From Clostridia bacterium (GTDB lineage Bacteria; Bacillota; Clostridia; UMGS1883), in NCBI GenBank assembly GCA_045636425.1, contig JAZTXM010000006.1, forward strand, positions 8,784 to 72,783: a stretch of DNA of 64,000 nucleotides. Direction: 5' to 3'. The stretch's first letter is position 1. Every line of letters starts with the position of its first letter. Positions 2,620 through 48,285 of the stretch are shown piece after piece. The translations under genes and the position numbers were made by a program. Below the pieces are notes generated by a model. That model was not told where the DNA came from and ran no database searches. It worked only from the letters and a program-made list of their open reading frames with translations.

Positions 2620-3444
2620 TTAATCTATGTTTTCTGTCACCTGAATTGAGTTTTCGAAGCCATACTTCTTAGCAATTTCCATAAGCTTTCCATTCTCGGA
2701 AAGGGTCTTGATAGCTTCGTTTACCTTAGAAGTAAGCTCGCTTCCCTTCTTGAAGCCTACAGCGTAGATTTCGCTGTCAAGCTCTATCGCCTCTGCAATG
2801 GCAAGGTCCTTATAGTCGCCCTGACCGCAGATATTCTTTGCAAGGATAATATCAACAACTGCAAAATCAACTGCACCTGACTTAACTTCTGAGAAAGCAT
2901 TGATCTGTGCTGTTGTAGAGAAAATCTTGTCAGCATCTGTAACTGTGGATGCATAGGATGCACCTGCACTGCCACCCTCTACGCAAGCTGTCTTTCCCTT
3001 GAGGTCAGCTTCGGATGTGATTGCAGCGGCATTTTCTGCCTTTGTTACAACACACTGCTGATTAAGCATGTAACCGTATGAGAAGTCAACAAGGTCTGAA
3101 CGCTTTACGCTTGCACCGTTTACCTCGTCGGAGGAATTAGCTGTGAATCCGTTCCATACGCAGTCGATTGCACCGGAATTAAGTTCGTTGTATTTCTGAG
3201 CCCAGTCGATAACCTGGAAGTCAACATCCATACCGATGATTTTTCCGACTTCCTGAGCAAACTCGGTTTCAAAACCTGTCCATGTGCCGTCTGCTTCCTG
3301 TTCATTCATCTTTTCGAAAATAGTAACACCGCAAACAAGTGTGTCCTTTTCATTTGATGCGTTGTTTGCCTTTTCCGTGCCGCAGCCTGCAAACATTGAA
3401 AAAGCAAGCATAAGTGTAAGTACAATTGCAAGTAATTTTTTCAT
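2620..3444 (-). CDS. Amino acid ABC transporter substrate-binding lipoprotein
   Basis: Lipoprotein signal (LAFSMFAGCG) and SBP_bac_3-like body; first gene of the three-gene transporter operon. Confidence 0.8.
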   Translation of the reverse strand: MKKLLAIVLTLMLAFSMFAGCGTEKANNASNEKDTLVCGVTIFEKMNEQEADGTWTGFETEFAQEVGKIIGMDVDFQVIDWAQKYNELNSGAIDCVWNGFTANSSDEVNGASVKRSDLVDFSYGYMLNQQCVVTKAENAAAITSEADLKGKTACVEGGSAGASYASTVTDADKIFSTTAQINAFSEVKSGAVDFAVVDIILAKNICGQGDYKDLAIAEAIELDSEIYAVGFKKGSELTSKVNEAIKTLSENGKLMEIAKKYGFENSIQVTENID

Positions 3445-3516: not shown

Positions 3517-5013
3517 TTACATTTTCCCTCTTTTATAAAGACCGCTTAGATTTTTGTAAAACGCCCTGTCTATACCCGAAAGGGCTTCTTCGGTAATTCT
3601 GAAGCACCAGTTTCCCTCTGCCACTCCGGGGTGATTCATACAGGTATCGGAGCCGAAACCGCACAAATCCTGAATAGGAACTATAGTAAGGATTGCGCCG
3701 CTCCTCCACAAGGTGCGGATTACACTGCGTATGGAATCGCTGTGAAATCCTCCCTGCCCCCAATCTCCGTGAAAATCGCAGTAATCCATAGCGTAGGCAC
3801 GGCTTTTCTCATCGGATTCCCACAGCCAGCCTAAAAGTGTATTGTTATCATGGGTACCTGTATATCCCACTGTGTTTTTAGTGTAATTATGGGGAAGATG
3901 CACCGTGTCATCATCGGTTATAAAGGCGAACTGCATTACGCCCATTCCGGGAAAGCCTGCTTCTTTCACCAGATTTCGCACATCGTCATCAATATCTCCC
4001 AAATCCTCGGCAATAATATTTGCATCGGGATATTTTTCTTTAAGCTTGTTAAAAAATTCGATTCCGGGCCCTTTTTCCCATCTGCCCTCGGTAGCCTTTT
4101 CCCCGGCAGGGATAGACCAGTAGGCGGAAAATGCACGGAAGTGGTCTATTCTTACGGCATCATACATTTTAAGAGCACAGCCAAGTCTGTTTATCCACAA
4201 ATCGTAGCCTGTTTTTTCAAGATTATCCCAGTTGTAAAGAGGGTTTCCCCATTTTTGTCCGTCCTCGCAGAAATAATCGGGGGGCACTCCTGCACATCTT
4301 TTAAGGTTCATATCCTCATCCAACGAGAAAAATTCGGGGTTTGCCCACACATCGGCACTGTCGTGTGAGAGATAAATAGGCATATCTCCGATAATGGAGA
4401 TACCTTTTTCGTTTGCGTACTTTTTCATGCTTTCCCACTGTGAAAAGAATTCGTACTGCAAAAATTCGTAAAAAGAAATATCCTCGGAAAGCTCCGCCTT
4501 TGCCTTTTCCAGGGCATCACTGTTGCGAAGCTTAAGACCCTCATCCCACTCATACCAGGGGAGGAGAGAATTTTTTTCTTTAAGAGCACAGAAAAGAGCG
4601 TAGTTCTCCACCCACGGATTTTTACTGCAAAAATCCGCAATTTCGCCTTTCATTTCCTCCGAAAGGCGTGAATATGCCCTGCGGAAAATTTTCTCTCTGG
4701 TGTTTTTTAAAAACTCATAGTCCGTTACATATATATCGGAGGATTTACATTCCTCCACATCGCTTTTTGTTAAAAGCTTTTTCTCCATAAGTATTTCGGG
4801 GTCAATAAAATAGATATTCCCTGCAAAAGCACTCTTTCCGCTGTATGGGGAGTTATAGTCATCGCAGGGACCGCAGGGCAGTACCTGCCATGCCCCAAAT
4901 GAGCAGGAGGATAGAAAATCTATAAAATCGCTTGCTGCCTTTCCCAGTGTTCCTATGGCAAAAGGACCGGGGAGGGAGGAAATGTGCATCAATACACCGC
5001 CGCATCTTTTCAT
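3517..5013 (-). CDS. malQ: 4-alpha-glucanotransferase (amylomaltase, GH77)
   Basis: N-terminal GVLMHISSLPGPFAIGTLG typical of MalQ; 498 aa. Confidence 0.85.
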   Translation of the reverse strand: MKRCGGVLMHISSLPGPFAIGTLGKAASDFIDFLSSCSFGAWQVLPCGPCDDYNSPYSGKSAFAGNIYFIDPEILMEKKLLTKSDVEECKSSDIYVTDYEFLKNTREKIFRRAYSRLSEEMKGEIADFCSKNPWVENYALFCALKEKNSLLPWYEWDEGLKLRNSDALEKAKAELSEDISFYEFLQYEFFSQWESMKKYANEKGISIIGDMPIYLSHDSADVWANPEFFSLDEDMNLKRCAGVPPDYFCEDGQKWGNPLYNWDNLEKTGYDLWINRLGCALKMYDAVRIDHFRAFSAYWSIPAGEKATEGRWEKGPGIEFFNKLKEKYPDANIIAEDLGDIDDDVRNLVKEAGFPGMGVMQFAFITDDDTVHLPHNYTKNTVGYTGTHDNNTLLGWLWESDEKSRAYAMDYCDFHGDWGQGGFHSDSIRSVIRTLWRSGAILTIVPIQDLCGFGSDTCMNHPGVAEGNWCFRITEEALSGIDRAFYKNLSGLYKRGKM

Positions 5014-5014
5014 A

Positions 5015-5758
5015 TTAGAATACCTCCGTAATTTGCTGAATCAGATAATAAACAAGGGGGATAAACATAGAGGGAAGCATGTTGGCAAGCTTAAGCTTCG
5101 GCTTATACAGAAAGTTAAAGCCGATTCCCATAATAAGTATACTTCCCACAAAGGACATTTGTGCAATAACCGTTTCGGTAAGAAGCGGTGCAAGGAAAGA
5201 TGCACAAAGCGTTATAAGCCCCTGATAAAGTGCAATTGTAACACTTGAAAACATTACCCCTATTCCCAAGGTTGAGGCAAAGACCATTGCCATAATCATA
5301 TCTAAAAGGCTTTTGGTAATAAGAATGGTAGGATCGTGAAGAATCCCATCGTTAAGAGAGCCTAATATTGCCATCGAGCCTACACAGAACACCAAAGACG
5401 CCGTAATAAATCCCTCGGCAAAGGAGGATGAGTCCGAGGAGAATTTTTTCTGAAAAAAGCTTCCCATATCATCAAGCCCTTTTTCGATGTTAATAAGCTC
5501 CCCAAGCAGTGTGCCCAAAGCCAACGATATTACCATAAGTATTATGTAATCGGACTTCAAAACACCTTTTTCGCCTACACTGCAACAAGCGGTGATTATC
5601 CCCGTCAGCCCGATTGTCATTGTGGCAAGAGCCAGAGCCTGGGTAAGGCTGGTTTTGAGCCTTTCAGGGATTGCTTTTTTAAGAAGAAGCCCCAAAAGCG
5701 AGCCTATTATTACTAAAATAATATTTATCATTGTACCTGTTCCGGGCATATAAATCAT
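5015..5758 (-). CDS. DUF554 family membrane protein
   Basis: Polytopic membrane protein with an N-terminus (INIILVIIGSLLGLLLKKAIPERLK) typical of DUF554/YqgA. Confidence 0.55.
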   Translation of the reverse strand: MIYMPGTGTMINIILVIIGSLLGLLLKKAIPERLKTSLTQALALATMTIGLTGIITACCSVGEKGVLKSDYIILMVISLALGTLLGELINIEKGLDDMGSFFQKKFSSDSSSFAEGFITASLVFCVGSMAILGSLNDGILHDPTILITKSLLDMIMAMVFASTLGIGVMFSSVTIALYQGLITLCASFLAPLLTETVIAQMSFVGSILIMGIGFNFLYKPKLKLANMLPSMFIPLVYYLIQQITEVF

Positions 5759-5891
5759 TCCTTAAATAAAATATAATCCTATTCTATCAAATCCGCGAAG
5801 AATATACAATAACGTTTTCGGCTTTTTTTTAAATCTTCTCAAAGAGTGTAATTTTTGCTCGTTTACCGCCATATACTGCACTGACGAAAGG

Positions 5892-38490: not shown

Positions 38491-39660
38491 ATGTATCATA
38501 ATAAAACCGCTTCGGCAGTCATAGTAGCTGCAGGCTCGGGCACACGAATGGGCAGGGACAAGCTTCTCATTGACTTGTGTGGAAAAACCACCATTGTCCG
38601 CAGTGTCGAGGCTTTTAAAAACACAGGTTTTTTTGATGAAATTATACTTGTGGCAAGCGAAAAAAACATGGAATCCATAAGCTCCGAAATGGAAAACCAA
38701 TCCCTTTCGGACGATGTACGTATAATTCTCGGAGGCAGTAGCCGCGGCGAAAGCTCATTTCTTGGTATAAATGCCGCAAAAGGTGAATATGTCCTTATTC
38801 ATGACGCTGCTCGCCCCCTCGTTTCAGCTCAAACCATTGAGGACACCCTCTCTGCTTGTATTAAGAGCGGTGCCGCGGCGGCAGGGGTAAAATCCAAGGA
38901 TACAATTAAACAGGTTTCCCCGGATAATACCATTTCCGCGACAGTTCCCAGGGAATCGGCAGTGCTGATTCAGACCCCCCAGGGCTTTAAACGTGCAGAC
39001 ATTCTGTCTGCATATAGTGAGTACGGCTTTAACGAAACCGACGACTGTTCCCTTATGGAAAAAATGGGGGCAAGCATAGCCATAGTGGAGGGGAGCTACG
39101 AAAATTTGAAGCTTACCACGGCGGAGGATGTTGTAACCGCAGAGGGAATCCTCAAAAAACGCGGCGAAGGAAGGAGTGTTGTTCCCATGCGTGTCGGAAC
39201 AGGCTTTGATACACATAGACTGGTTGAAAACCGTGACCTTATAATAGGCGGAGTAAAAATCCCCTACGAAAAGGGGCTCTTAGGGCATAGCGATGCCGAT
39301 GTACTTATTCATGCAGTGATTGATGCACTCTTTGGAGCGGCGGCATTGGGGGATATCGGAACGCATTTCCCCGATACCGATGATAAGTATAAGGGCGTAT
39401 CAAGCATGCTTCTTTTGGAAGAAGCGGCGCGGCTTATTCGCGAAGAAGGCTATGAAATAGGGAATATAGATGCCACCATCATCGTACAAAAACCAAAAAT
39501 GGCACCCCATATCCCAATCATGTGCCGCAATATTGCCGATGCCGTAAAAACCGATGCTTCACGCATCAGCATTAAGGCGAAAACCAACGAACAAATGGGC
39601 TTCGCCGGCAGAGGCGAAGGAATCGAAGCCCGAGCCGTAGCATTATTATACCGCAACTAA
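38491..39660 (+). CDS. ispDF: Bifunctional IspD/IspF (MEP cytidylyltransferase / MEcPP synthase fusion)
   Basis: N-terminal [13 protein letters not shown] (IspD) and C-terminal GFDTHRL...[30 protein letters not shown] (IspF) in one 389-aa ORF. Confidence 0.8.
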
Positions 39661-39668
39661 AATAATTG

Positions 39669-39697
39669 TTGACATTTAACCCACATGGATATATAAT
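39669..39697 (+). promoter_or_regulatory. Consensus sigma-A promoter (TTGACA-17-TATAAT) driving a short sRNA (module A)
   Basis: Perfect -35 and -10 hexamers with a 17-nt spacer. Confidence 0.65.
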
Positions 39698-39703
39698 GAA
39701 TAT

Positions 39704-39775
39704 AGAAAAAGGCAAAACCTCAAACGGTTATGCCAAAGAATAGTTGCAAATTTTAAAGAGTAACCGTCTTTGCCG
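39704..39775 (+). ncRNA. Putative antisense sRNA A, about 72 nt, of a type I toxin-antitoxin-like module
   Basis: Lies between the consensus promoter and an intrinsic terminator (9-bp stem gagtaaccg/cggttactc + TGCTTTT). Overlaps the 3' end of the convergent small hydrophobic ORF. About 85% identical to the paralog at 45688-45779. Confidence 0.5.
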
Positions 39776-39833
39776 AGGCGGTTACTCTGCTTTTATCGCA
39801 AATGTTATTAACAACACAATTGTTAGAAAGAAT
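39762..39833 (-). CDS. Type I toxin-like small hydrophobic peptide, paralog A (IQYILRIFFLTIVLLITFAIKAE). Its start position is ATT rather than ATG, so it is possibly inactivated
   Basis: Homologous to ORF 45629-45697 in sequence and context. Own RBS AGGAGG 8 nt upstream. Promoter TTGAAA-17-TATAAT on the minus strand at 39908-39936. Confidence 0.35.
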
Positions 39834-40024
39834 ATTCTTAATATGTATTGAATAACTACCACCTCCTCTCGGAGCGTGGCATAACCGCCGGTGAAAAACA
39901 CCGTTAAGAAGTTTTGCCTTCCTAAACATTATATCGTATTTTCCCCGGCGTTTCAAGAAAAATTTTGAATTAACATAAAACATCCCCCTTTTGGATAATA
40001 TATCTCTAAAAGGGGGCTTTTTCT

Positions 40025-41720: not shown

Positions 41721-42005
41721 CAAAACAAGGTGGGATTGCGATGCAATCCCACCTTGTTTGTTTCTTAAAAAGTCAACCCCCAATATTAAAAATCCGACTT
41801 TCTTCCTATTATATATAACAACAAACCCCGTGGGGTTTGCACCATCACTCTGCATTTCGCACTCCAATTGCGGCAGGACAGCAGGACCCGTCCCCACAGA
41901 CTGTCGCCGCCCCCCTGTTTTGTAACATAACCATCACAAAACTCTATTTATGTGTTACTTATGTTACAAAACATTACAGTTTCATTACATCTGCAAAAAA
42001 CCTAT

Positions 42006-42098: not shown

Positions 42099-45000
42099 AT
42101 GAGAAATCTCAAGAAGACACTCGCAGTTGTTCTTGCATTTGCTATGATTCTCAGCATGGGTCTTACATCCATGGCTGCGTATTCAGACGTAGAAGCAGGA
42201 ACAAAAGTTTCCGAGGCTGTTGGTATCCTTTCTAACCTTAACATTCTTACAGGTTTTGAAGATGGTACATTCAAGCCCGACGAAACTGTTACAAGAGCTC
42301 AGATGGCTGCTATCATCTGCCGTACACTCGGTTACGAAGATCAGGCACAGTCAAGCATGGGCACAACAGTATTTAACGACGTTGCCGCTGATCACTGGGC
42401 ATCAGGCTACATCAACGTAGCTCAGGCACAGCAGATCATCAACGGTTACGGTGATGGTAACTACGGTCCCGAGGATCAGGTTACTTACGAGCAGGCAGTT
42501 AAGATGATCGTTTCCGCTCTTGGTTACGACCTTGCTGCACAGTCAAAGGGTGGTTACCCCACAGGTTACCTTGCAATCGCTTCTGCTGAGGGCATCACAA
42601 AGAGTGCTAACGGTAAGGTAGGCGACGCTGCTGCAAGAGGAACAATCGCAATTCTCGTTTACAACTCTCTCGAAGTTCGCCTTATGGACCAGGCTTCTTG
42701 GTCTACAGGTTCTGACGGAGACAAGTATGAGAAGACAGACGACACAATCCTTTCTAAGTACCTTGAGGTGTTAAAGGTTGAAGGTGTTGTTACAAAGACT
42801 CCTTTTGCTACCTATGAATCTAAGGGCTTTGACGCTGACATGGTTCCCGAAATGACAATTGATGGTAAGGAATTCTACTACAATAAAGGTGTAGAAGAAA
42901 CTAAATCATATTCAGATACAGTTGATTGCAGCCTTGTTGATGCTGACTCACTCCTTGGTAAGTACGTTGTTGCTTACATTGGTGCTGACGAAGACGACAA
43001 TACAGGTAATGTAATGGTTTACGCTGTTTCTGAAAAGCAGAATAAGAACGTTGTTACAACAGTAGCAAGCACACAGCTTGTAGATTCTACTGATACAAAG
43101 TATTTTAATAACGCTAAGCAGGTTTGCTACAGGGAAGTAGGTTCAACAAGAGTTATTGAACTCGACCTCGAACAGACTGCAGCAGAATTCAAAGTATATG
43201 AAAACTTTGGTACAAGCACATTTACAAACGCTTCTACAACAGCTAACCTTGCTACAATTCTCCAGGAGGGTGGCATGGCTCAGTTCATCAGCAATGACAA
43301 TGATGATGCTATCGAATATGTAATCATCACTGCATTTGATGAAGAAGGCGTTATCGAAAACGTAACTAATGAAGATGGCGTTATTATGTTCGACCTCTTC
43401 TACGGTGACCTTGCTGATATCGATACAGAAGACGAAGATGAGCTCACAGTTGTTTACAAAGACGGTGCTCTTGCAACAGCTGCTGATCTTGCTGCAAACG
43501 ATACAGTTTCTACTGTAAACGTTCACAAGACTGTTAAGGTTCTCTACGCTTCTTCTGCAACAGTTACAGGTGCTGTTGAGTCTCATGATGACGAAGTTGT
43601 AACAATCGGTGGTACTGACTACAAAGTTGGCCTTCAGTACAGCGGAGATGCAAGCCTTCTTAAGGATAAGGAAGGTATCTTCTTCCTTAACGTTGGCGGT
43701 ATCATCGCTCACGACGAAGCAGATTCAACAGCTTCAGGCAACTACGGTGTAGTTCTTGCTGTTGATTACGAAGATGGTATTACAGATGGTTATGTAATGC
43801 AGGTTGTTCTTCAGGACGGTACGGTAGCTGAGTATGAAGTTTCTTCTAAGGTTGCTTATACAAAGGCTGACGGTTCTGCTCTTGCAGTAGGTGATGGTCT
43901 TAGCAAGGATGACGTTGCAGCAGCTGCTGTAGCTTCAGGTATCACAGGTGCTACTGTAACAGCAAATGCTTCAGGCTTCACAACTAAGAACCTTACTTCT
44001 ACGAACGCTCAGGCTGCTGTATACAAGTTTACAGTTAAGAACGGCGAAATCACAAAGATTAAGGAAGTTGAATCTTCTACAGAAGTTAAAGAATATACAA
44101 GCAGCGATGTTAAGAAATATGATGCTGAGTCTATGAGCTATGGTTCATATGAATTCGACGAAAGCTCTATCGTATTCGCAATTGACCATGCAAAGGGTGC
44201 TACTCAGGTTACAGACGATGATATCGCTGTAGGTGGCGTATCTTCTTTCATCGCTGATGAAGATGATAGCCTTGCACTTATTCTCTTCACAGAGAAGAAT
44301 AAGGACGTTGTAACATTCGCAATTGGCTTTGGTCTTACAGCAAGTATCCCCGAAGAGTCTGCTGCAATCATCGTATCAGCAGTTAAGAATGTTACTTATG
44401 ATGATGACGAAGCTATTCAGGTAACAGGTATCCAGGCAGGCGAAGAAGTAACTTACATCATCTATGATGAAAACAGTGGTTACACATCAAATCCTGAAAA
44501 CATCGAAAAGGGTGACGTAATCCTTGTTTCTGCTGCAACAGCTGAAGGTGTAGTAGAAGACTGCAAGATCCTTCTTGACATTTCTGCTAAGACAGCAGCA
44601 GCAGGCATCGCTGCTGATGAAAGTGCTAACACATTTGCTCTTCTCGGCGGATTCTACAACGACGATGCTGCTGCAACATCTTCTAAGTTCTTCATTGATA
44701 AGGATGTTACAATCCCCACAACTCCTTCTGCTACAACTTGGGCAGCATCCGGAGACGGTATCACAATGAAGACATCTGCTAACTACACACTTGTAGATTA
44801 CACAGATGGTGAAAAGAACCCTGTTATCGAGAAGAAGAATCCCGGAACTTCACTCTTCAGCAAGAGATATCCTGCTTACGTATTCGTAAGAGTATATGAC
44901 GATGTTCTTACAGAAGTTGTTGTTTACCGTTATGATGAAGATAAAGTTCTTTCTGCACAGGGTACAGGATTCAAGGTTGCAGATCCTGTAATCAAGTTTA

Positions 45001-45206
45001 ATGATGACAAAACAAAGGCTACAATCACATGTGCTACAGAGGGTGCTACAATTATGTACAAACTCAACAGCGGTGAATTTGCAAAATATACAGAGGAAAT
45101 TACTGTAACAGCAGGTGATGTTGTTCAGGCTTATGCTACAAAGACAGCTTGTACAACAAGCGATACTGCTTCGGAAACAGTTCCTACTCCTGCTCCCGCA
45201 GCTTAA
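42099..45206 (+). CDS. Major S-layer protein candidate (1035 aa), N-terminal SLH triplet
   Basis: Signal peptide; three SLH repeats; a large Thr/Ala/Val/Asp-rich beta-rich body. Codon usage is strongly biased toward T/C-ending codons, a highly-expressed-gene signature distinct from its neighbours. Confidence 0.8.
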   Translation: MRNLKKTLAVVLAFAMILSMGLTSMAAYSDVEAGTKVSEAVGILSNLNILTGFEDGTFKPDETVTRAQMAAIICRTLGYEDQAQSSMGTTVFNDVAADHWASGYINVAQAQQIINGYGDGNYGPEDQVTYEQAVKMIVSALGYDLAAQSKGGYPTGYLAIASAEGITKSANGKVGDAAARGTIAILVYNSLEVRLMDQASWSTGSDGDKYEKTDDTILSKYLEVLKVEGVVTKTPFATYESKGFDADMVPEMTIDGKEFYYNKGVEETKSYSDTVDCSLVDADSLLGKYVVAYIGADEDDNTGNVMVYAVSEKQNKNVVTTVASTQLVDSTDTKYFNNAKQVCYREVGSTRVIELDLEQTAAEFKVYENFGTSTFTNASTTANLATILQEGGMAQFISNDNDDAIEYVIITAFDEEGVIENVTNEDGVIMFDLFYGDLADIDTEDEDELTVVYKDGALATAADLAANDTVSTVNVHKTVKVLYASSATVTGAVESHDDEVVTIGGTDYKVGLQYSGDASLLKDKEGIFFLNVGGIIAHDEADSTASGNYGVVLAVDYEDGITDGYVMQVVLQDGTVAEYEVSSKVAYTKADGSALAVGDGLSKDDVAAAAVASGITGATVTANASGFTTKNLTSTNAQAAVYKFTVKNGEITKIKEVESSTEVKEYTSSDVKKYDAESMSYGSYEFDESSIVFAIDHAKGATQVTDDDIAVGGVSSFIADEDDSLALILFTEKNKDVVTFAIGFGLTASIPEESAAIIVSAVKNVTYDDDEAIQVTGIQAGEEVTYIIYDENSGYTSNPENIEKGDVILVSAATAEGVVEDCKILLDISAKTAAAGIAADESANTFALLGGFYNDDAAATSSKFFIDKDVTIPTTPSATTWAASGDGITMKTSANYTLVDYTDGEKNPVIEKKNPGTSLFSKRYPAYVFVRVYDDVLTEVVVYRYDEDKVLSAQGTGFKVADPVIKFNDDKTKATITCATEGATIMYKLNSGEFAKYTEEITVTAGDVVQAYATKTACTTSDTASETVPTPAPAA

Positions 45207-45259
45207 TCTTTGACTCTTATAAAATTAATAGTCAATTAAAAAAGGACAGTCCCGAAAGG

Positions 45260-45446
45260 GGCTGTTCTTTTTTGTCCGCTTGACAACAAGCATCAAAAGT
45301 GGTAAAATATGCCCATAATCTTTATTGGAGGGGATAAAATGACAAAGCGTATTACATGTGTACTGATGATGTTCATCCTTGTGTCACAAGGATGCTTTGC
45401 ACAGGACGTGTTTTTTGGAAAAGCCAGAACAGAGGAATATATTCCG
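45260..45446. repeat. 187-bp direct repeat, copy 1, identical to 46798-46983. It contains a promoter, RBS and the first 36 codons of the transglutaminase-like gene
   Basis: Both copies can be aligned in the raw sequence. Confidence 0.85.
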
Positions 45447-45493
45447 GTGATAATGGGGACGGGTGATAATGGGGACGTACATTTTTTGTCAAC
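45447..45493. repeat. Solo copy of the element end: two copies of the 13-mer GTGA(T/C)AATGGGGAC followed by GTACATTTTTTGTCAAC
   Basis: Nearly identical to 45839-45885 and to the inner part of the inverted right end at 46675-46793. Confidence 0.75.
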
Positions 45494-45514
45494 TTTTCCC
45501 AAAACAAAAAGCCA

Positions 45515-45543
45515 ACCGAAGTTGACTTTTCTTTCGCAATACT
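45515..45543 (+). promoter_or_regulatory. Consensus promoter TTGACT-17-TATAAT for the type I toxin-like mRNA (module B)
   Basis: Perfect -10 hexamer, 5/6 match in -35, 17-nt spacer. Confidence 0.6.
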
Positions 45544-45628
45544 ATATAATAGAACACAAGGTAAGACCTAAAACAGTGTAACAGCTGGGCGGTTATGCCA
45601 TCATCTTCTTTTAAGGAGGTGATAGCTT

Positions 45629-45697
45629 ATGGATAGTGAATACATAATATCTTTTATGTTAATTCTGTTACTTTTAGTAATTTCCATAAAAAAATAA
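45629..45697 (+). CDS. Type I toxin-like small hydrophobic peptide (22 aa): MDSEYIISFMLILLLLVISIKK
   Basis: RBS AAGGAGG 9 nt upstream of ATG; a single predicted TM helix with a C-terminal KK; stop codon inside the stem of a bidirectional terminator; convergent antisense promoter downstream. Confidence 0.5.
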   Translation: MDSEYIISFMLILLLLVISIKK

Positions 45698-45779
45698 CGC
45701 CAGCCGACCAAAGCAATAGCGTTATTTTTTAAATAATTCTGATGTTTTGGCATAACCGTTTGAGGTCTTGCCTTTTTCT
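45688..45779 (-). ncRNA. Putative antisense sRNA B, about 90 nt, convergent with the toxin-like ORF and overlapping it 3'-to-3'
   Basis: Minus-strand promoter TTGACT (45809-45814)-17-TATAAT (45786-45791). Ends at the shared hairpin (aataacgc/gcgttatt) plus U-tract. About 85% identical to sRNA A. Confidence 0.5.
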
Positions 45780-45880
45780 ATTTACATTATATAACCACAT
45801 AGGGAAAAAGTCAACCCCTAATATAGAAAATCCATCTAGGTGACAATGGGGACGGGTGACAATGGGGACGTACATTTTTG

Positions 45881-46618
45881 TCAACTTTTGTATATTATTC
45901 CTCGCGATATCCCGGTCACCCGTTCCAGTTGTCGTATTGAATACTCTTTCTTCATTTTATTTAACATCGCATTTCGCTCTTTCTTTTCCATGGTACAGAT
46001 GTTTTTAGGCTCAATTTTGTACTTTTTTATTATCCTTCTTCTTATTTCATCATCTGTCAGCTTTACTTTTCCATCTACATTAAAATCGCTCTCTTCGTCT
46101 TGTTTGTGAAACTCAACAAATTCTTCTTTGCTTATCATTCCCAAGATAAAATCCTTGTCAGTTATTCTGGATTCATCAAAAATGTACTCATTATAACTCG
46201 ACCATTCATAGTCCTTCAATTCATCTACTATTCCTGCCTTTTTAGGATTTTGATGTATATATCGGACTAAGCATAAAAAATATTCATCTACATCAACAGC
46301 CTTACTTTTATATCTGTTTGCAATTAATGCTCCGCTTCTTCCATACTTTATATTGTACCAGCGAGCATATTTTGTCAAAACCCTTTTCATTATCAGCGAT
46401 ATTTCACCGGCAGTTTTTTCTTTTAACAAAATATGTACGTGGTTACTCATCAGACAAAACGCATATATTTCGTATTCCATTTCGATTTTGATGCTGTTTA
46501 ATATCTCTATCAACTTTTCATAATCCACCGATTCTTCAAAAATATGCTGCCTGTTTACTCCTCTAAAAACAATGTGGTATATCCCACTTTGACTGATCAC
46601 TCTCGCTGCCCTTGCCAT
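45881..46618 (-). CDS. IS200/IS605-type Y1 transposase-like protein (245 aa) with a C-terminal HTH extension
   Basis: HuH motif (SNHVHILL) and catalytic Tyr region (RYIHQNP) of the Transposase_17/Y1_Tnp family; C-terminal SIRQLERVTGISRGIIYKS helix-turn-helix. Confidence 0.75.
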   Translation of the reverse strand: MARAARVISQSGIYHIVFRGVNRQHIFEESVDYEKLIEILNSIKIEMEYEIYAFCLMSNHVHILLKEKTAGEISLIMKRVLTKYARWYNIKYGRSGALIANRYKSKAVDVDEYFLCLVRYIHQNPKKAGIVDELKDYEWSSYNEYIFDESRITDKDFILGMISKEEFVEFHKQDEESDFNVDGKVKLTDDEIRRRIIKKYKIEPKNICTMEKKERNAMLNKMKKEYSIRQLERVTGISRGIIYKS

Positions 46619-46674
46619 TTTCTCATCTCCTTTCTATGAATTGTATCACGCTTAATCATATTAGTCAAGGAAAA

Positions 46675-46793
46675 GTTGACAAAAAATGTACGTCCCCATT
46701 GTCATCCCCATTGTCAGTCCCCATTGTCACCGTCCCCATTGTCACCCATTGTCACCCATTGTCACCAATGTCACTCCGTCCCCATTGTCACTC
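46675..46793. repeat. Right inverted end: about 8 tandem copies of the CCCCATTGTCA(C) 12-13-mer
   Basis: Direct reading of the sequence; inverted relative to the left-end 13-mers. Confidence 0.85.
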
Positions 46794-46875
46794 AACTGCT
46801 GTTCTTTTTTGTCCGCTTGACAGCAGAGTAAGAATGTAGTAAAATATATCCATAATCCTTATTGGAGGGGATAAA

Positions 46876-48285
46876 ATGACAAAGCGTATTACATGTGTAC
46901 TGATGATGTTCATCCTTGTGTCACAAGGATGCTTTGCACAGGACGTGTTTTTTGGAAAAGCCAGAACAGAGGAATATATTCCGATTAGCGGTTCGCTTTT
47001 TGAAAATTCCGAGGGTATAGCCTGCGAGGAAGATGAGCCGTCCATAAGCTTTTTTAACAATTTATCTTTCGAGGAATATATTCTTCAGGCGGTGACTGAA
47101 CGTGAGACTTTCCCCACGGAGATTCCGGGACTAGGTCAGTACAATCTTACAACAGAAGAATTTTTGAAATTATACAGAGATGTTGCGATGAGGAATCCCG
47201 AGGCATTTATAACACCGTCGTGTACGTACTACTACAATAGCAGTGGAATAGTTACAAGTGTAGTGCCTGAATATGTGCTTGAAAACAAAGCCGAGATGGA
47301 ATCTGCAATCTTTCAAATGAATGAGGCAATAAAGGAATATACAGACCTTGCTGCAAAGTATGATACAGAGCTTGAAAAATTGCTCGTAATCCATGATAAA
47401 ATGGTTGCCGAATGTGACTATGATGTGAATGTGCTGAATGAAGCAACTGAGAGTTTGGCAGAGCGTAGTGTATACCATGCCTTTGGTGCTTTGTGTAAAA
47501 GTAAAAAGAAGGCAGTGTGCCAGGGGTATTCACAGGCACTTTATATGATTGCCAATAAAATCGGTATAGAGATTGATTTTTGCCGCTCCGCAGAGAGAAA
47601 GCATATGTGGAACTATGTGAAGCTTGATGGCAAGTGGTACCACATGGATATGACCAATGACGACCCGTTAATCAAAGATGAAAACGGACTTGTTTCAGCA
47701 AGAAAAGACCCTCGTGCGAAGCATAGTTACTTCCTTGTGTCGGATAGCGGCCTTGAAAAGAGTATACATGGAACGGATTACGGCAATATCTTCGGCGAAA
47801 GATATACTTGTGACGATAAGCGGTACGAATCAGACCATTTGTTTAATATGAATCTGGTATTTACCGCTCAAAAAGATGAGAATGGATATTACACCGTTGA
47901 GATTGAAAACATAGTGGGACCATTGGGAACAGGTATTGCCATTCCGCTTAGAAGCAAAACCTTGTATACAGGCCCTGTGGTGACTTATCCGTTTGTAACA
48001 GAGACTCCCGTGGGTGTTACATCAAGCGGTCAATTAGTGACAAAACCGTGTCTTTACCTGGCGCAGTATGCGACAAAGGATATCCCCCCTGCAATTCCTT
48101 TTATAAAAATGGAGGATGGGATAAAGTCTTTCCCTGTGCAGGATGATTTCACAAAGGACAGCTATTATATGATAGGAATAGCAAGGGATGTGGAAAGTAA
48201 CCCCGTTTCGGAATTTTCTTCATTCCTCTTTGGAGAGGGGACGCTTTGCCCGCACTCAATCAACAAAAATTGGGTTTTGCGATAA
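46876..48285 (+). CDS. Secreted transglutaminase-like (cysteine protease fold) domain protein
   Basis: Signal peptide; Cys-His-Asp core (CQGYSQALY...HMWNYV...DMTNDDP). Confidence 0.6.
   Translation: MTKRITCVLMMFILVSQGCFAQDVFFGKARTEEYIPISGSLFENSEGIACEEDEPSISFFNNLSFEEYILQAVTERETFPTEIPGLGQYNLTTEEFLKLYRDVAMRNPEAFITPSCTYYYNSSGIVTSVVPEYVLENKAEMESAIFQMNEAIKEYTDLAAKYDTELEKLLVIHDKMVAECDYDVNVLNEATESLAERSVYHAFGALCKSKKKAVCQGYSQALYMIANKIGIEIDFCRSAERKHMWNYVKLDGKWYHMDMTNDDPLIKDENGLVSARKDPRAKHSYFLVSDSGLEKSIHGTDYGNIFGERYTCDDKRYESDHLFNMNLVFTAQKDENGYYTVEIENIVGPLGTGIAIPLRSKTLYTGPVVTYPFVTETPVGVTSSGQLVTKPCLYLAQYATKDIPPAIPFIKMEDGIKSFPVQDDFTKDSYYMIGIARDVESNPVSEFSSFLFGEGTLCPHSINKNWVLR

Follow-up and report, generated by a model that had tools for sequence, protein, structure and literature searches.

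Organization of the locus

The DNA analysed here (the window) is a 64,000-nucleotide stretch of contig JAZTXM010000006.1 from a Clostridia bacterium (assembly GCA_045636425.1). Its subject is a transposase gene bounded by inverted terminal repeats, and the locus probably consists of one intact element of the TIRYT family and one solo end of the same family. The features are as follows (positions in the window).

45447-45499, plus strand: solo end pointing inward, with two 16-bp units GGTGATAATGGGGACG followed by the core GTACATTTTTTGTCAACTTTTCC; it has no transposase gene of its own
45839-45890, plus strand: 3'-side end (RE), with two 16-bp units GGTGACAATGGGGACG followed by the core GTACATTTTTGTCAACTTTT; it overlaps the last transposase codons and the TGA
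45881-46618, minus strand: transposase gene (245 aa), with an N-terminal Y1/HuH, RAYT-like domain and a C-terminal extension of ~105 aa
46640-46668, minus strand: probable transposase promoter, TTGACT-17-TACAAT with an upstream TG, directly inside the core of the 5'-side end
46669-46797, minus strand: 5'-side end (LE), with the core GTACATTTTTTGTCAACTTTTCC at 46669-46691, about eight full or truncated units at 46692-46791, and TCAACT at 46792-46797

Both element ends contain a conserved core, GGGGACGTACATTTTT(T)GTCAAC, and tandem partial copies of its outer part, two at 45839-45870 and about eight at 46692-46791. Read towards the gene, each array gives way to GTACATTTTT(T)GTCAACTTTT. The TGA stop codon of the transposase lies inside an end core, and promoter-like hexamers, read by eye, occupy the same position in homologous loci as in the window. 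With up to two mismatches allowed, the 14-mer GTGACAATGGGGAC has 10 matches in the window, every one at this locus, against an expectation of 0.37 from shuffling (0 of 100 shuffles reached 10). Two lie at 45447-45476 (in the variant GTGATAAT), two at 45840-45869, and six on the minus strand at 46692-46791, where truncated copies are interspersed among them. The period found by Tandem Repeats Finder is exactly 16 bp in both left arrays and an irregular 9-17 in the right one, whose units measure, in inward order, 17, 9, 10, 10, 15, 13 and 12 nt before an innermost unit that runs into the core.

The ends form two inverted pairs, 45461-45499 with 46669-46707 (39 nt, 95% complementary) and 45854-45879 with 46682-46707 (26 nt, 96%). 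The solo end, 393 bp further out than the inner end, resembles it in its outer part of two units (41 nt, 95% against 45839-45879) and shares a T6 run and TTTTCC with the far end. A first-pass annotation, made from the letters of the window, had described inverted repeat arrays with two copies on the left and about eight on the right, together with a second, solo left end outboard. The repeat counts and the inverted pairs agree with this description, except that the repeat, put there at 13 bp, measures 14 nt.

Transposase

The 245-residue protein matches Pfam Y1_Tnp over residues 13-124 (E=2.8e-16). It has HVH at residues 60-62 (H60-V-H62) and a Y-x3-N-P motif, Y120-I-H-Q-N124-P125, that is invariant in alignments of 26 and 30 homologs; the HuH motif and catalytic tyrosine assigned to 45881-46618 in the first pass are thus in place. 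The comparison with RAYT and IS200 transposases suggested there was run with family models, a sequence profile and a fold search, and it yields a TnpA-REP/RAYT-like protein. The best NCBIfam model is REP_Tyr_transpos (NF047646; 71 bits, cut-off 80), while the IS200 model (NF033573) reaches 31 bits (cut-off 55). Among PDB sequences, a profile of 26 homologs has one meaningful match, TnpA-REP (4ER8, E=3e-5). An AlphaFold model (pLDDT 88) also retrieves 4ER8 first (E=4e-8, target template modelling score 0.75), followed by the IS200, IS608 and ISDra2 transposases. An exact-protein look-up of the window transposase returned no record.

The C-terminal ~105 residues are conserved, helical and confidently folded in the model, and terminate in SIRQLERVTGISRGIIYKS, a region that may form a helix-turn-helix (HTH). 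No relationship of this domain to DnaA-C or the Trp repressor is claimed, as the fold search gave no significant match.

End design across the family

A homolog search returned 2,539 matches at E<=1e-3; among the 120 homologs listed, nearly all are 245 aa long and most lie on contigs of ~1 kb. Nineteen genome loci were recovered, mostly from Clostridia metagenome bins, and 18 of them encode a protein that aligns over most of the query at 50-68% amino acid identity. The contigs of the closest homologs (P0001, P0004) are too short or rearranged to yield flanks. The repeats first read as ends from the window alone recur throughout, with the same end design in 18 of 18 homologous loci at every readable flank. 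In brief, the design is (units)n-GGGGACGTAC-T-run-inner arm, gene, inverted copy. At least one short unit ending in GGGGAC is followed by GTAC, a T-run, an inner arm (TTGTCAAC or TTGGYA), the promoter, the gene and inverted units. The TGA stop falls inside the inverted core in 15 of the 16 loci with a readable 3' flank (exception, L014); the 3' flanks of L017 and L018 are unreadable, and both loci stand outside this count.

The unit sequence varies by subfamily (GACAAT, GACAAA, GCCATTT, GCCACTT and others), and the inner arm changes along with it. Among distinct ends, GACA-TGTC and NCCA-TGGY combinations number 33 each and hybrids two, in counts uncorrected for shared ancestry. The pairing is expressed as a contingency count; the subfamilies pair in registers one base apart, and a single structure would be hand-fitted. 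Because outer and inner arms change together, each end is an imperfect palindrome. In the window ends, the outer arm TGACAA matches the inner arm TTGTCA, with the invariant GGGGACGTAC between them, and each extra unit of the tandem "13-mer" arrays repeats only the outer arm and GGGGAC(G). The outer arm also covaries, together with the inner arm, with substitutions in the HTH region of the protein (LERVTG vs LQRITG). Folded as single strands, the ends of distant relatives form strong hairpins (L016, z=-5.3; L014, z=-2.7). The whole 129-nt array of the window folds no better than shuffles, and no stable hairpin is claimed for the window clade.

Mobility of the unit

One protein of the family, P0027, is encoded in two unrelated neighbourhoods, between HTH_3/HisKA-GerE and Peptidase_M55/BrkB/RecJ genes in one and within a Tox-WTIP/Peptidase_M16/Imm40 locus in the other. 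The flanks of L020 and L022 are unrelated, yet 858 bp of the two loci are 99.65% identical, with the similarity ending exactly at one end unit per side; L005 and L006 share 867 bp at 98.5% identity, likewise in unrelated flanks. With near-identical units in unrelated flanks, the element must be mobile or transferable. The unit concerned is ~860 bp long and comprises an end unit, core, promoter, transposase gene, core and end unit. No short target duplications were seen at the four junctions of the 99.65%-identical copies. Several metagenome matches fall at contig ends, which, like the ~1 kb contigs of most homologs, is expected of repeated DNA. A scan of viral contigs with the core 18-mer gave one match; it lacks the family arms, so there is no phage link.

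Variable arrays, solo ends and doublets

The number of units per end ranges from one to eight across the family, the eight-unit array of the window being the largest seen and L011 and L013 having a single unit at both ends. Even the two 99.65%-identical copies differ, with 1 vs 3.5 units at the 5' end and 3 vs 1 at the 3' end. At one and the same insertion site, L031 has 2.5 units and four other samples 3.5. L021 and L025 carry a 40-bp duplication of a whole end that is absent from L020 and the other samples at the site. The extra array units are not fixed architecture and are probably variable by-products. The first-pass likening of the termini to the multi-site ends of Tn7 or Mu is not supported on these counts. 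Tn7 and Mu have a fixed arrangement of several transposase-binding sites per end and a DDE transposase, whereas here unit number and spacing vary, single-unit ends exist and the protein is of the HuH/Y1 type.

The units share their outer boundary, and their stop points vary. About 55% of partial units stop at GGGGAC, GGGGACG or GGGGACGT, about 22% after the arm and GG(G), and about 20% continue into the T-run or inner arm; larger partial end copies that include tens of interior bases occur in L001, L007, L008 and L069. The preference for breakpoints after GGGGAC(G) supports a site-specific process, as does the 16-bp duplication register, which arose in both the C-type and the T-type ends of the window. 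The arrangement in L069, a 74%-identical relative, departs from the family norm at its 3' end: direct, not inverted, copies of the 5' end follow the gene head to tail (1120-1338), and then comes the start of a second element.

Ends also occur without a gene. Scanning metagenomes with the 18-mer core gave 34 loci, of which four encode the transposase; about eight lack the arms, are probably chance matches and were left uncounted. At least 10 contigs carry family ends or doublets and, although a gene would fit, have none (L035, L038, L039/L057, L044, L048, L045/L054, L058, L059, L060, L065), and L010 has two inverted doublets of ~100 bp without a gene, at 3005-3075 and 5692-5762. Solo ends and doublets are thus common in the family, and the solo end of the window is an ordinary family feature.

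Several of these arrangements were noted in passing. The gene-less inverted doublets of L010, L044 (65-125), L048 (470-570) and L038 (2092-2220) measure ~75-130 bp and resemble miniature inverted-repeat transposable elements (MITEs) or REPINs. In L030 (2500-4320), and also in L004, L022, L028, L031 and L032, element ends alternate with small genes in a Tox-WTIP/Peptidase_M16/Imm40 polymorphic-toxin locus, the order in L030 being end, Imm40, end-transposase-end, orf159, end. The perfect palindrome AGGGGACGTACATTTTTTGATGTACGTCCCCT of L040 (~4700-4735) and L050 (~1435-1470) consists of two head-to-head cores without arms, and may be a minimal doublet or unrelated.

Relation to known systems

RAYT-like genes with long inverted repeats were named "TIRtrons", and their proteins TIRYTs, by Di Nocera, De Gregorio and Rocco (2013; PMC3733652). 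In that paper, GGGGWSAS is found in the majority of the terminal inverted repeats (TIRs), not in all, and TIR copies are described as single, dimeric or clustered. Quentin et al. (2018; PMC6006769) placed TIRYTs in TnpA-Y1 subclass 2.1, with a C-terminal HTH-like domain, and reported that they detected no repetitive extragenic palindrome (REP)-like structures close to the genes. The same set forms RAYT group 1 of Bertels et al. (2017; PMC5581495), which is also present in Clostridia and is the most insertion sequence (IS)-like group by duplicates and plasmid carriage. Copy numbers of class 2 or group 1 are given as low (PMC6006769; PMC5581495), and the HTH types published for the C-terminal extension of TIRYT/subclass 2.1/group 1 proteins are Bac_DnaA_C, HTH_23 or HTH_28-like. 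Within the literature searched, TIRYTs were mentioned in these three papers only, and a mechanistic study was not found. As the architecture was named in 2013, a Y1 protein with inverted termini is not new, and the termini are not the oddity for a Y1 transposase that the first pass took them to be.

The window element resembles TIRYTs in its RAYT-like Y1/HuH protein with Y-x3-NP, longer than RAYTs by a C-terminal extension that may be HTH-like, and in its long TIRs, which are not GTAG REPs and one of which overlaps the 3' end of the gene. It also shares with them a GGGG-rich TIR motif, TIR copies as singles, dimers and clusters, and a clostridial host. It differs in the motif itself, since GGGGACGT fits GGGGWSAS at six of eight positions, with GT instead of AS at positions 7-8. 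Variable tandem partial copies, a ~860-bp unit and near-identical copies at unrelated sites do not appear in the available portions of the TIRYT papers. In contrast to the report of no REP-like structures for subclass 2.1, the ends of the window family are imperfect palindromes, strong in distant relatives.

Escherichia coli TnpA-REP (4ER8) is the closest solved structure and profile match, and its gene, too, is bracketed by inverted copies of the cognate repeat. Like REPs, bacterial interspersed mosaic elements (BIMEs) and REPINs, the family repeats are dispersed, clustered and arranged in inverted doublets, each a palindrome with a conserved unpaired motif. However, the window ends lack the GTAG of TnpA-REP sites, their palindrome is weak in this clade, and the protein has the extra ~105-aa C-terminal domain; unlike in group 2/3 RAYTs, the gene-carrying unit is found at different sites. 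Assignment to the strict RAYT family was rejected on the sub-threshold NF047646 score and on flanking repeats that, without GTAG, are not classical REPs. With the IS200/IS605 transposases of IS608 and ISDra2, the protein shares the HuH motif, the single catalytic tyrosine and the fold, and the element the lack of an obvious target-site duplication at the sites compared. Those transposases, however, are ~130-155 aa long without an HTH and act on dissimilar subterminal hairpins, and membership of IS200/IS605 is ruled out by the NF033573 score, the length of 245 aa and the inverted-repeat ends.

A proposed model of end processing

A mechanism can be outlined by analogy with the HuH/Y1 enzymes of IS608 and ISDra2 and with TnpA-REP, from which we infer it. 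The HuH domain would nick and rejoin one strand through Y120, at or beside GGGGACG/TAC within GGGGACGTAC. Nicking might take place while the end is extruded as a weak hairpin that presents GGGGACGTAC between the paired arms, as TnpA-REP does on REPs. The putative C-terminal HTH would hold the arms on duplex DNA, and may repress the promoter next to the inner arm. When ends are processed repeatedly or abortively, extra units, solo ends and doublets would be left behind; alternatively, they would arise from insertion into resident ends and subsequent recombination. In either case, they would be to this family what REP clusters and REPINs are to RAYTs.

On this basis, it is tentatively proposed, as a possible account only, that the 245-aa clade (>2,500 homologs, mostly of gut and rumen Clostridia) is an actively transposing, IS-like branch of the RAYTs that moves as a ~860-bp TIR-bounded unit, and that its tandem units, solo ends and doublets are scars of nicking at GGGGACG/TAC and rejoining to the terminus. 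The cleavage site would then be recorded in the genome, and transposon ends would be seen giving rise to REP/REPIN-like repeat families. TIRYT/group 1 is the largest RAYT group, and its action on DNA is not shown in the literature searched. The locus and its relatives offer testable parameters, namely a unit of 858-867 bp, GGGGACGTAC with co-varying arms, a breakpoint after GGGGAC(G) and miniature derivatives, that could connect the emergence of REP/REPIN-type repeat families with IS-like Y1 elements.

A number of points weigh against the preferred reading of the locus and the mechanism outlined for it. The window contains one full TIRYT copy. The near-identical copies come from different metagenome bins, and so prove different insertion sites, not transposition within one cell. 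The window ends fold at -3 kcal/mol (z about -0.9), no better than shuffles, and a dimeric protein bound to double-stranded DNA could explain the symmetry of the arms just as well. Polymerase stalling, rather than cutting by the transposase, could be behind the junctions that cluster at GGGGACG, and is a fair alternative. For any TIRYT, nick site, strand used and hairpin are extrapolations. As for the C-terminal HTH, which the first pass had named, the extra conserved extension stands. Its identity as an HTH is tentative: the C-terminal 102 aa have no Pfam match, sub-threshold matches to HTH_28, HTH_58, HTH_7, Sigma70_r4 and Trp_repressor occur in 1-3 of 30 homologs, and the domain alone gave nothing better than E=3.4 in the fold search.

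The toxin-antitoxin-like module

The sequence between the solo end and the inner end holds one further feature.

45520-45815, strand not assigned: type I toxin-antitoxin (TA)-like module, with convergent promoters, a 22-aa open reading frame (ORF) and a shared hairpin

Its placement between the two left ends was described in the first pass, and the anatomy bears this out. The promoters, at 45522-45550 (plus strand) and 45814-45786 (minus strand), converge, and each matches the consensus at 11 of 12 positions. A hydrophobic 22-aa ORF (45629-45697, plus strand) stands behind AAGGAGG. A perfect 12-bp inverted repeat (45689-45700/45719-45730) with T and A tails forms a hairpin resembling a bidirectional terminator (45689-45730). 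The two predicted transcripts have similar 5' leaders (45558-45600 and 45748-45774). Type I TA loci with convergent RNAs that overlap at their 3' ends include txpA/RatA and bsrG/SR4 of Bacillus subtilis and par/Fst of Enterococcus faecalis. The module has in common with such loci a short hydrophobic peptide, a strong Shine-Dalgarno sequence, a convergent small transcript and a shared terminator, all predicted. It differs from them in that Rfam and Pfam give no match and the two leaders are similar, not complementary. An Rfam scan of 44500-47500 at E<=1 found chance-level matches only, and Pfam found nothing for the 22-aa peptide. Judged by its anatomy, the module is a candidate type I TA locus.

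Related copies are found elsewhere. A paralog at 39660-39960 (minus strand) has two convergent promoters, as in the module, the same leader motifs (AAGGCAAAAC...CGGTTATGCC), a short hydrophobic ORF and a terminator. Upstream of the S-layer homology (SLH) gene, where L001 has a full module, there is a 29-nt remnant (41767-41795), and the L001 homolog (9-142) is 87% identical. None of the three adjoins element ends; the module thus represents a family of small chromosomal genes, and the element does not regularly carry it. At this locus it was probably a small gene already resident in the chromosome, which ended up flanked by the solo end and the element.

The 186-bp duplication and the SLH gene

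The block from the solo end to the outer edge of the far end (45447-46797) is bracketed by a 186-bp direct duplication, 45261-45446 = 46798-46983, that is absent from the first-pass annotation.

45261-45446, plus strand: left copy, in which the SLH-gene terminator is represented by its 3' half; it also has a TTGACA-17-TAAAAT promoter and codons 1-36 of a transglutaminase-like gene, cut off by the solo end
46798-46983, plus strand: right copy, continuing into the intact transglutaminase-like gene at 46876-48285

The coding part of the duplication is 100% identical to 46876-46983 (107 nt). The promoters (45280-45308 and 46817-46845) have the same -35 (TTGACA) and -10 (TAAAAT), while ~50% of the 17-bp spacer differs; differences between the copies are limited to this spacer and three nearby bases. 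TCAACT (46792-46797) resembles TCAATT (45232-45237), which lies just 5' of the terminator in the left copy. Should the two share an origin, the duplication did not start at 45261, and the 23-nt 5' half of the terminator was lost from the right copy.

Long flanking direct repeats are found in none of the 18 other loci. The 186-bp repeat is therefore probably a secondary event of this locus, and it was rejected as a transposition signature of the family. Most likely, two insertions 186 bp apart in a hot spot recombined unequally; this would leave a full terminator, promoter and 5' end of the gene to one side, and to the other the intact gene with its promoter and half a terminator. Alternatively, the repeat is a long staggered target duplication; were the proposal of end scars correct, it could be an unusually long one made by a single-strand mechanism linked to the replication fork.

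The first-pass annotation had offered two readings, a solo end next to a full element and a mobile unit with the TA module as cargo. The second, in which 45447-46797 transposes as one, the module is an addiction cargo and 45839-45890 is an internal site, is unlikely. It draws on the outermost ends, which face inward and form the best inverted pair (39 nt, 95%, vs 26 nt for the inner ends), on the T6 and TTTTCC common to the solo and far ends, on the duplication, which brackets exactly this 1351-bp block as a target duplication would, and on L030, where Imm40 and orf159 also lie between element ends. However, no second copy of the composite was found, and the module adjoins ends at no other locus, its end-free copies being known. 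The long flanking duplication is private to the window, and the strong difference between its promoter spacers is unexpected in a fresh target duplication. In L030, moreover, the ends face away from the small genes, which lie between elements and not inside one. A solo end beside a full element fits better, because solo ends and doublets are common in the family and the TA-like module has end-free copies.

The element of the window lies next to the terminator of an SLH gene (42099-45260), and TIRYT elements occupy the same position beside its orthologs in L001 (595-3793), L002 (832-3867) and L014 (835-3830). These elements belong to three lineages with 53-68% amino acid identity. The end of the SLH gene and its terminator (~70 nt) are 100% identical between the window and L001 and 92% identical between the window and L002, and hrcA lies downstream in L002 as in the window (89% aa identity). 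Judging from these sequences, the site, directly 3' of a strong terminator, may be a recurrent insertion hot spot. The recurrent position could also partly reflect old vertical inheritance.

Taken further, that thought leads to a domesticated, vertically inherited RAYT-like gene that sits at a fixed position and services flanking or dispersed repeats, as group 2/3 RAYTs do with REPINs. Such a gene would fit the location just downstream of the SLH gene in four genomes, the 96% identity of L001 and L002, which look like one inherited insertion, the low copy numbers published for class 2/group 1, the one copy in the window, and the likeness of the dispersed solo ends and doublets to REPs and REPINs. 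It is nonetheless quite improbable, given the 99.65%- and 98.5%-identical units in unrelated contexts. Despite the identical 70-nt flank of L001, the window transposase is no nearer to those of L001 and L002 (68% and 67%) than to those of elements in other contexts (67%), and the L001 protein is nearer to that of L004 (71%) than to that of the window (68%). Insertion orientation and exact junctions differ between the window and L001/L014, and group 1 is the RAYT group most like IS elements in its duplicates and plasmid carriage.

Very improbable is a role of the tandem units as functional platforms, iteron-like or of the Tn7/Mu kind, that bind several transposases through the C-terminal HTH and are needed for transposition. 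In favour of it are the non-random, strictly local occurrence of the units, the additional conserved C-terminal domain of the protein, and an outer arm that differs by subfamily along with the inner arm and the HTH-region substitutions; against it, unit number runs from one to eight, is one at both ends of L011 and L013 and differs among near-identical copies and samples, spacing is not fixed, and many units are cut to 9-12 nt at variable points, which would destroy a binding site.

With a solo end beside a full element as the preferred reading, the locus would be annotated as an IS-like element, a solo end and a probable small toxin locus, with a dead 5' copy of the transglutaminase-like gene split off and the intact copy under its own promoter. 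In L002, downstream of the element (~5150-5230), an ORF starting with MELPKRKSTRLKEYDYSTPGIYFVTVC looks, by eye, like the N-terminus of another class-2 Y1 (RAYT-like) protein.

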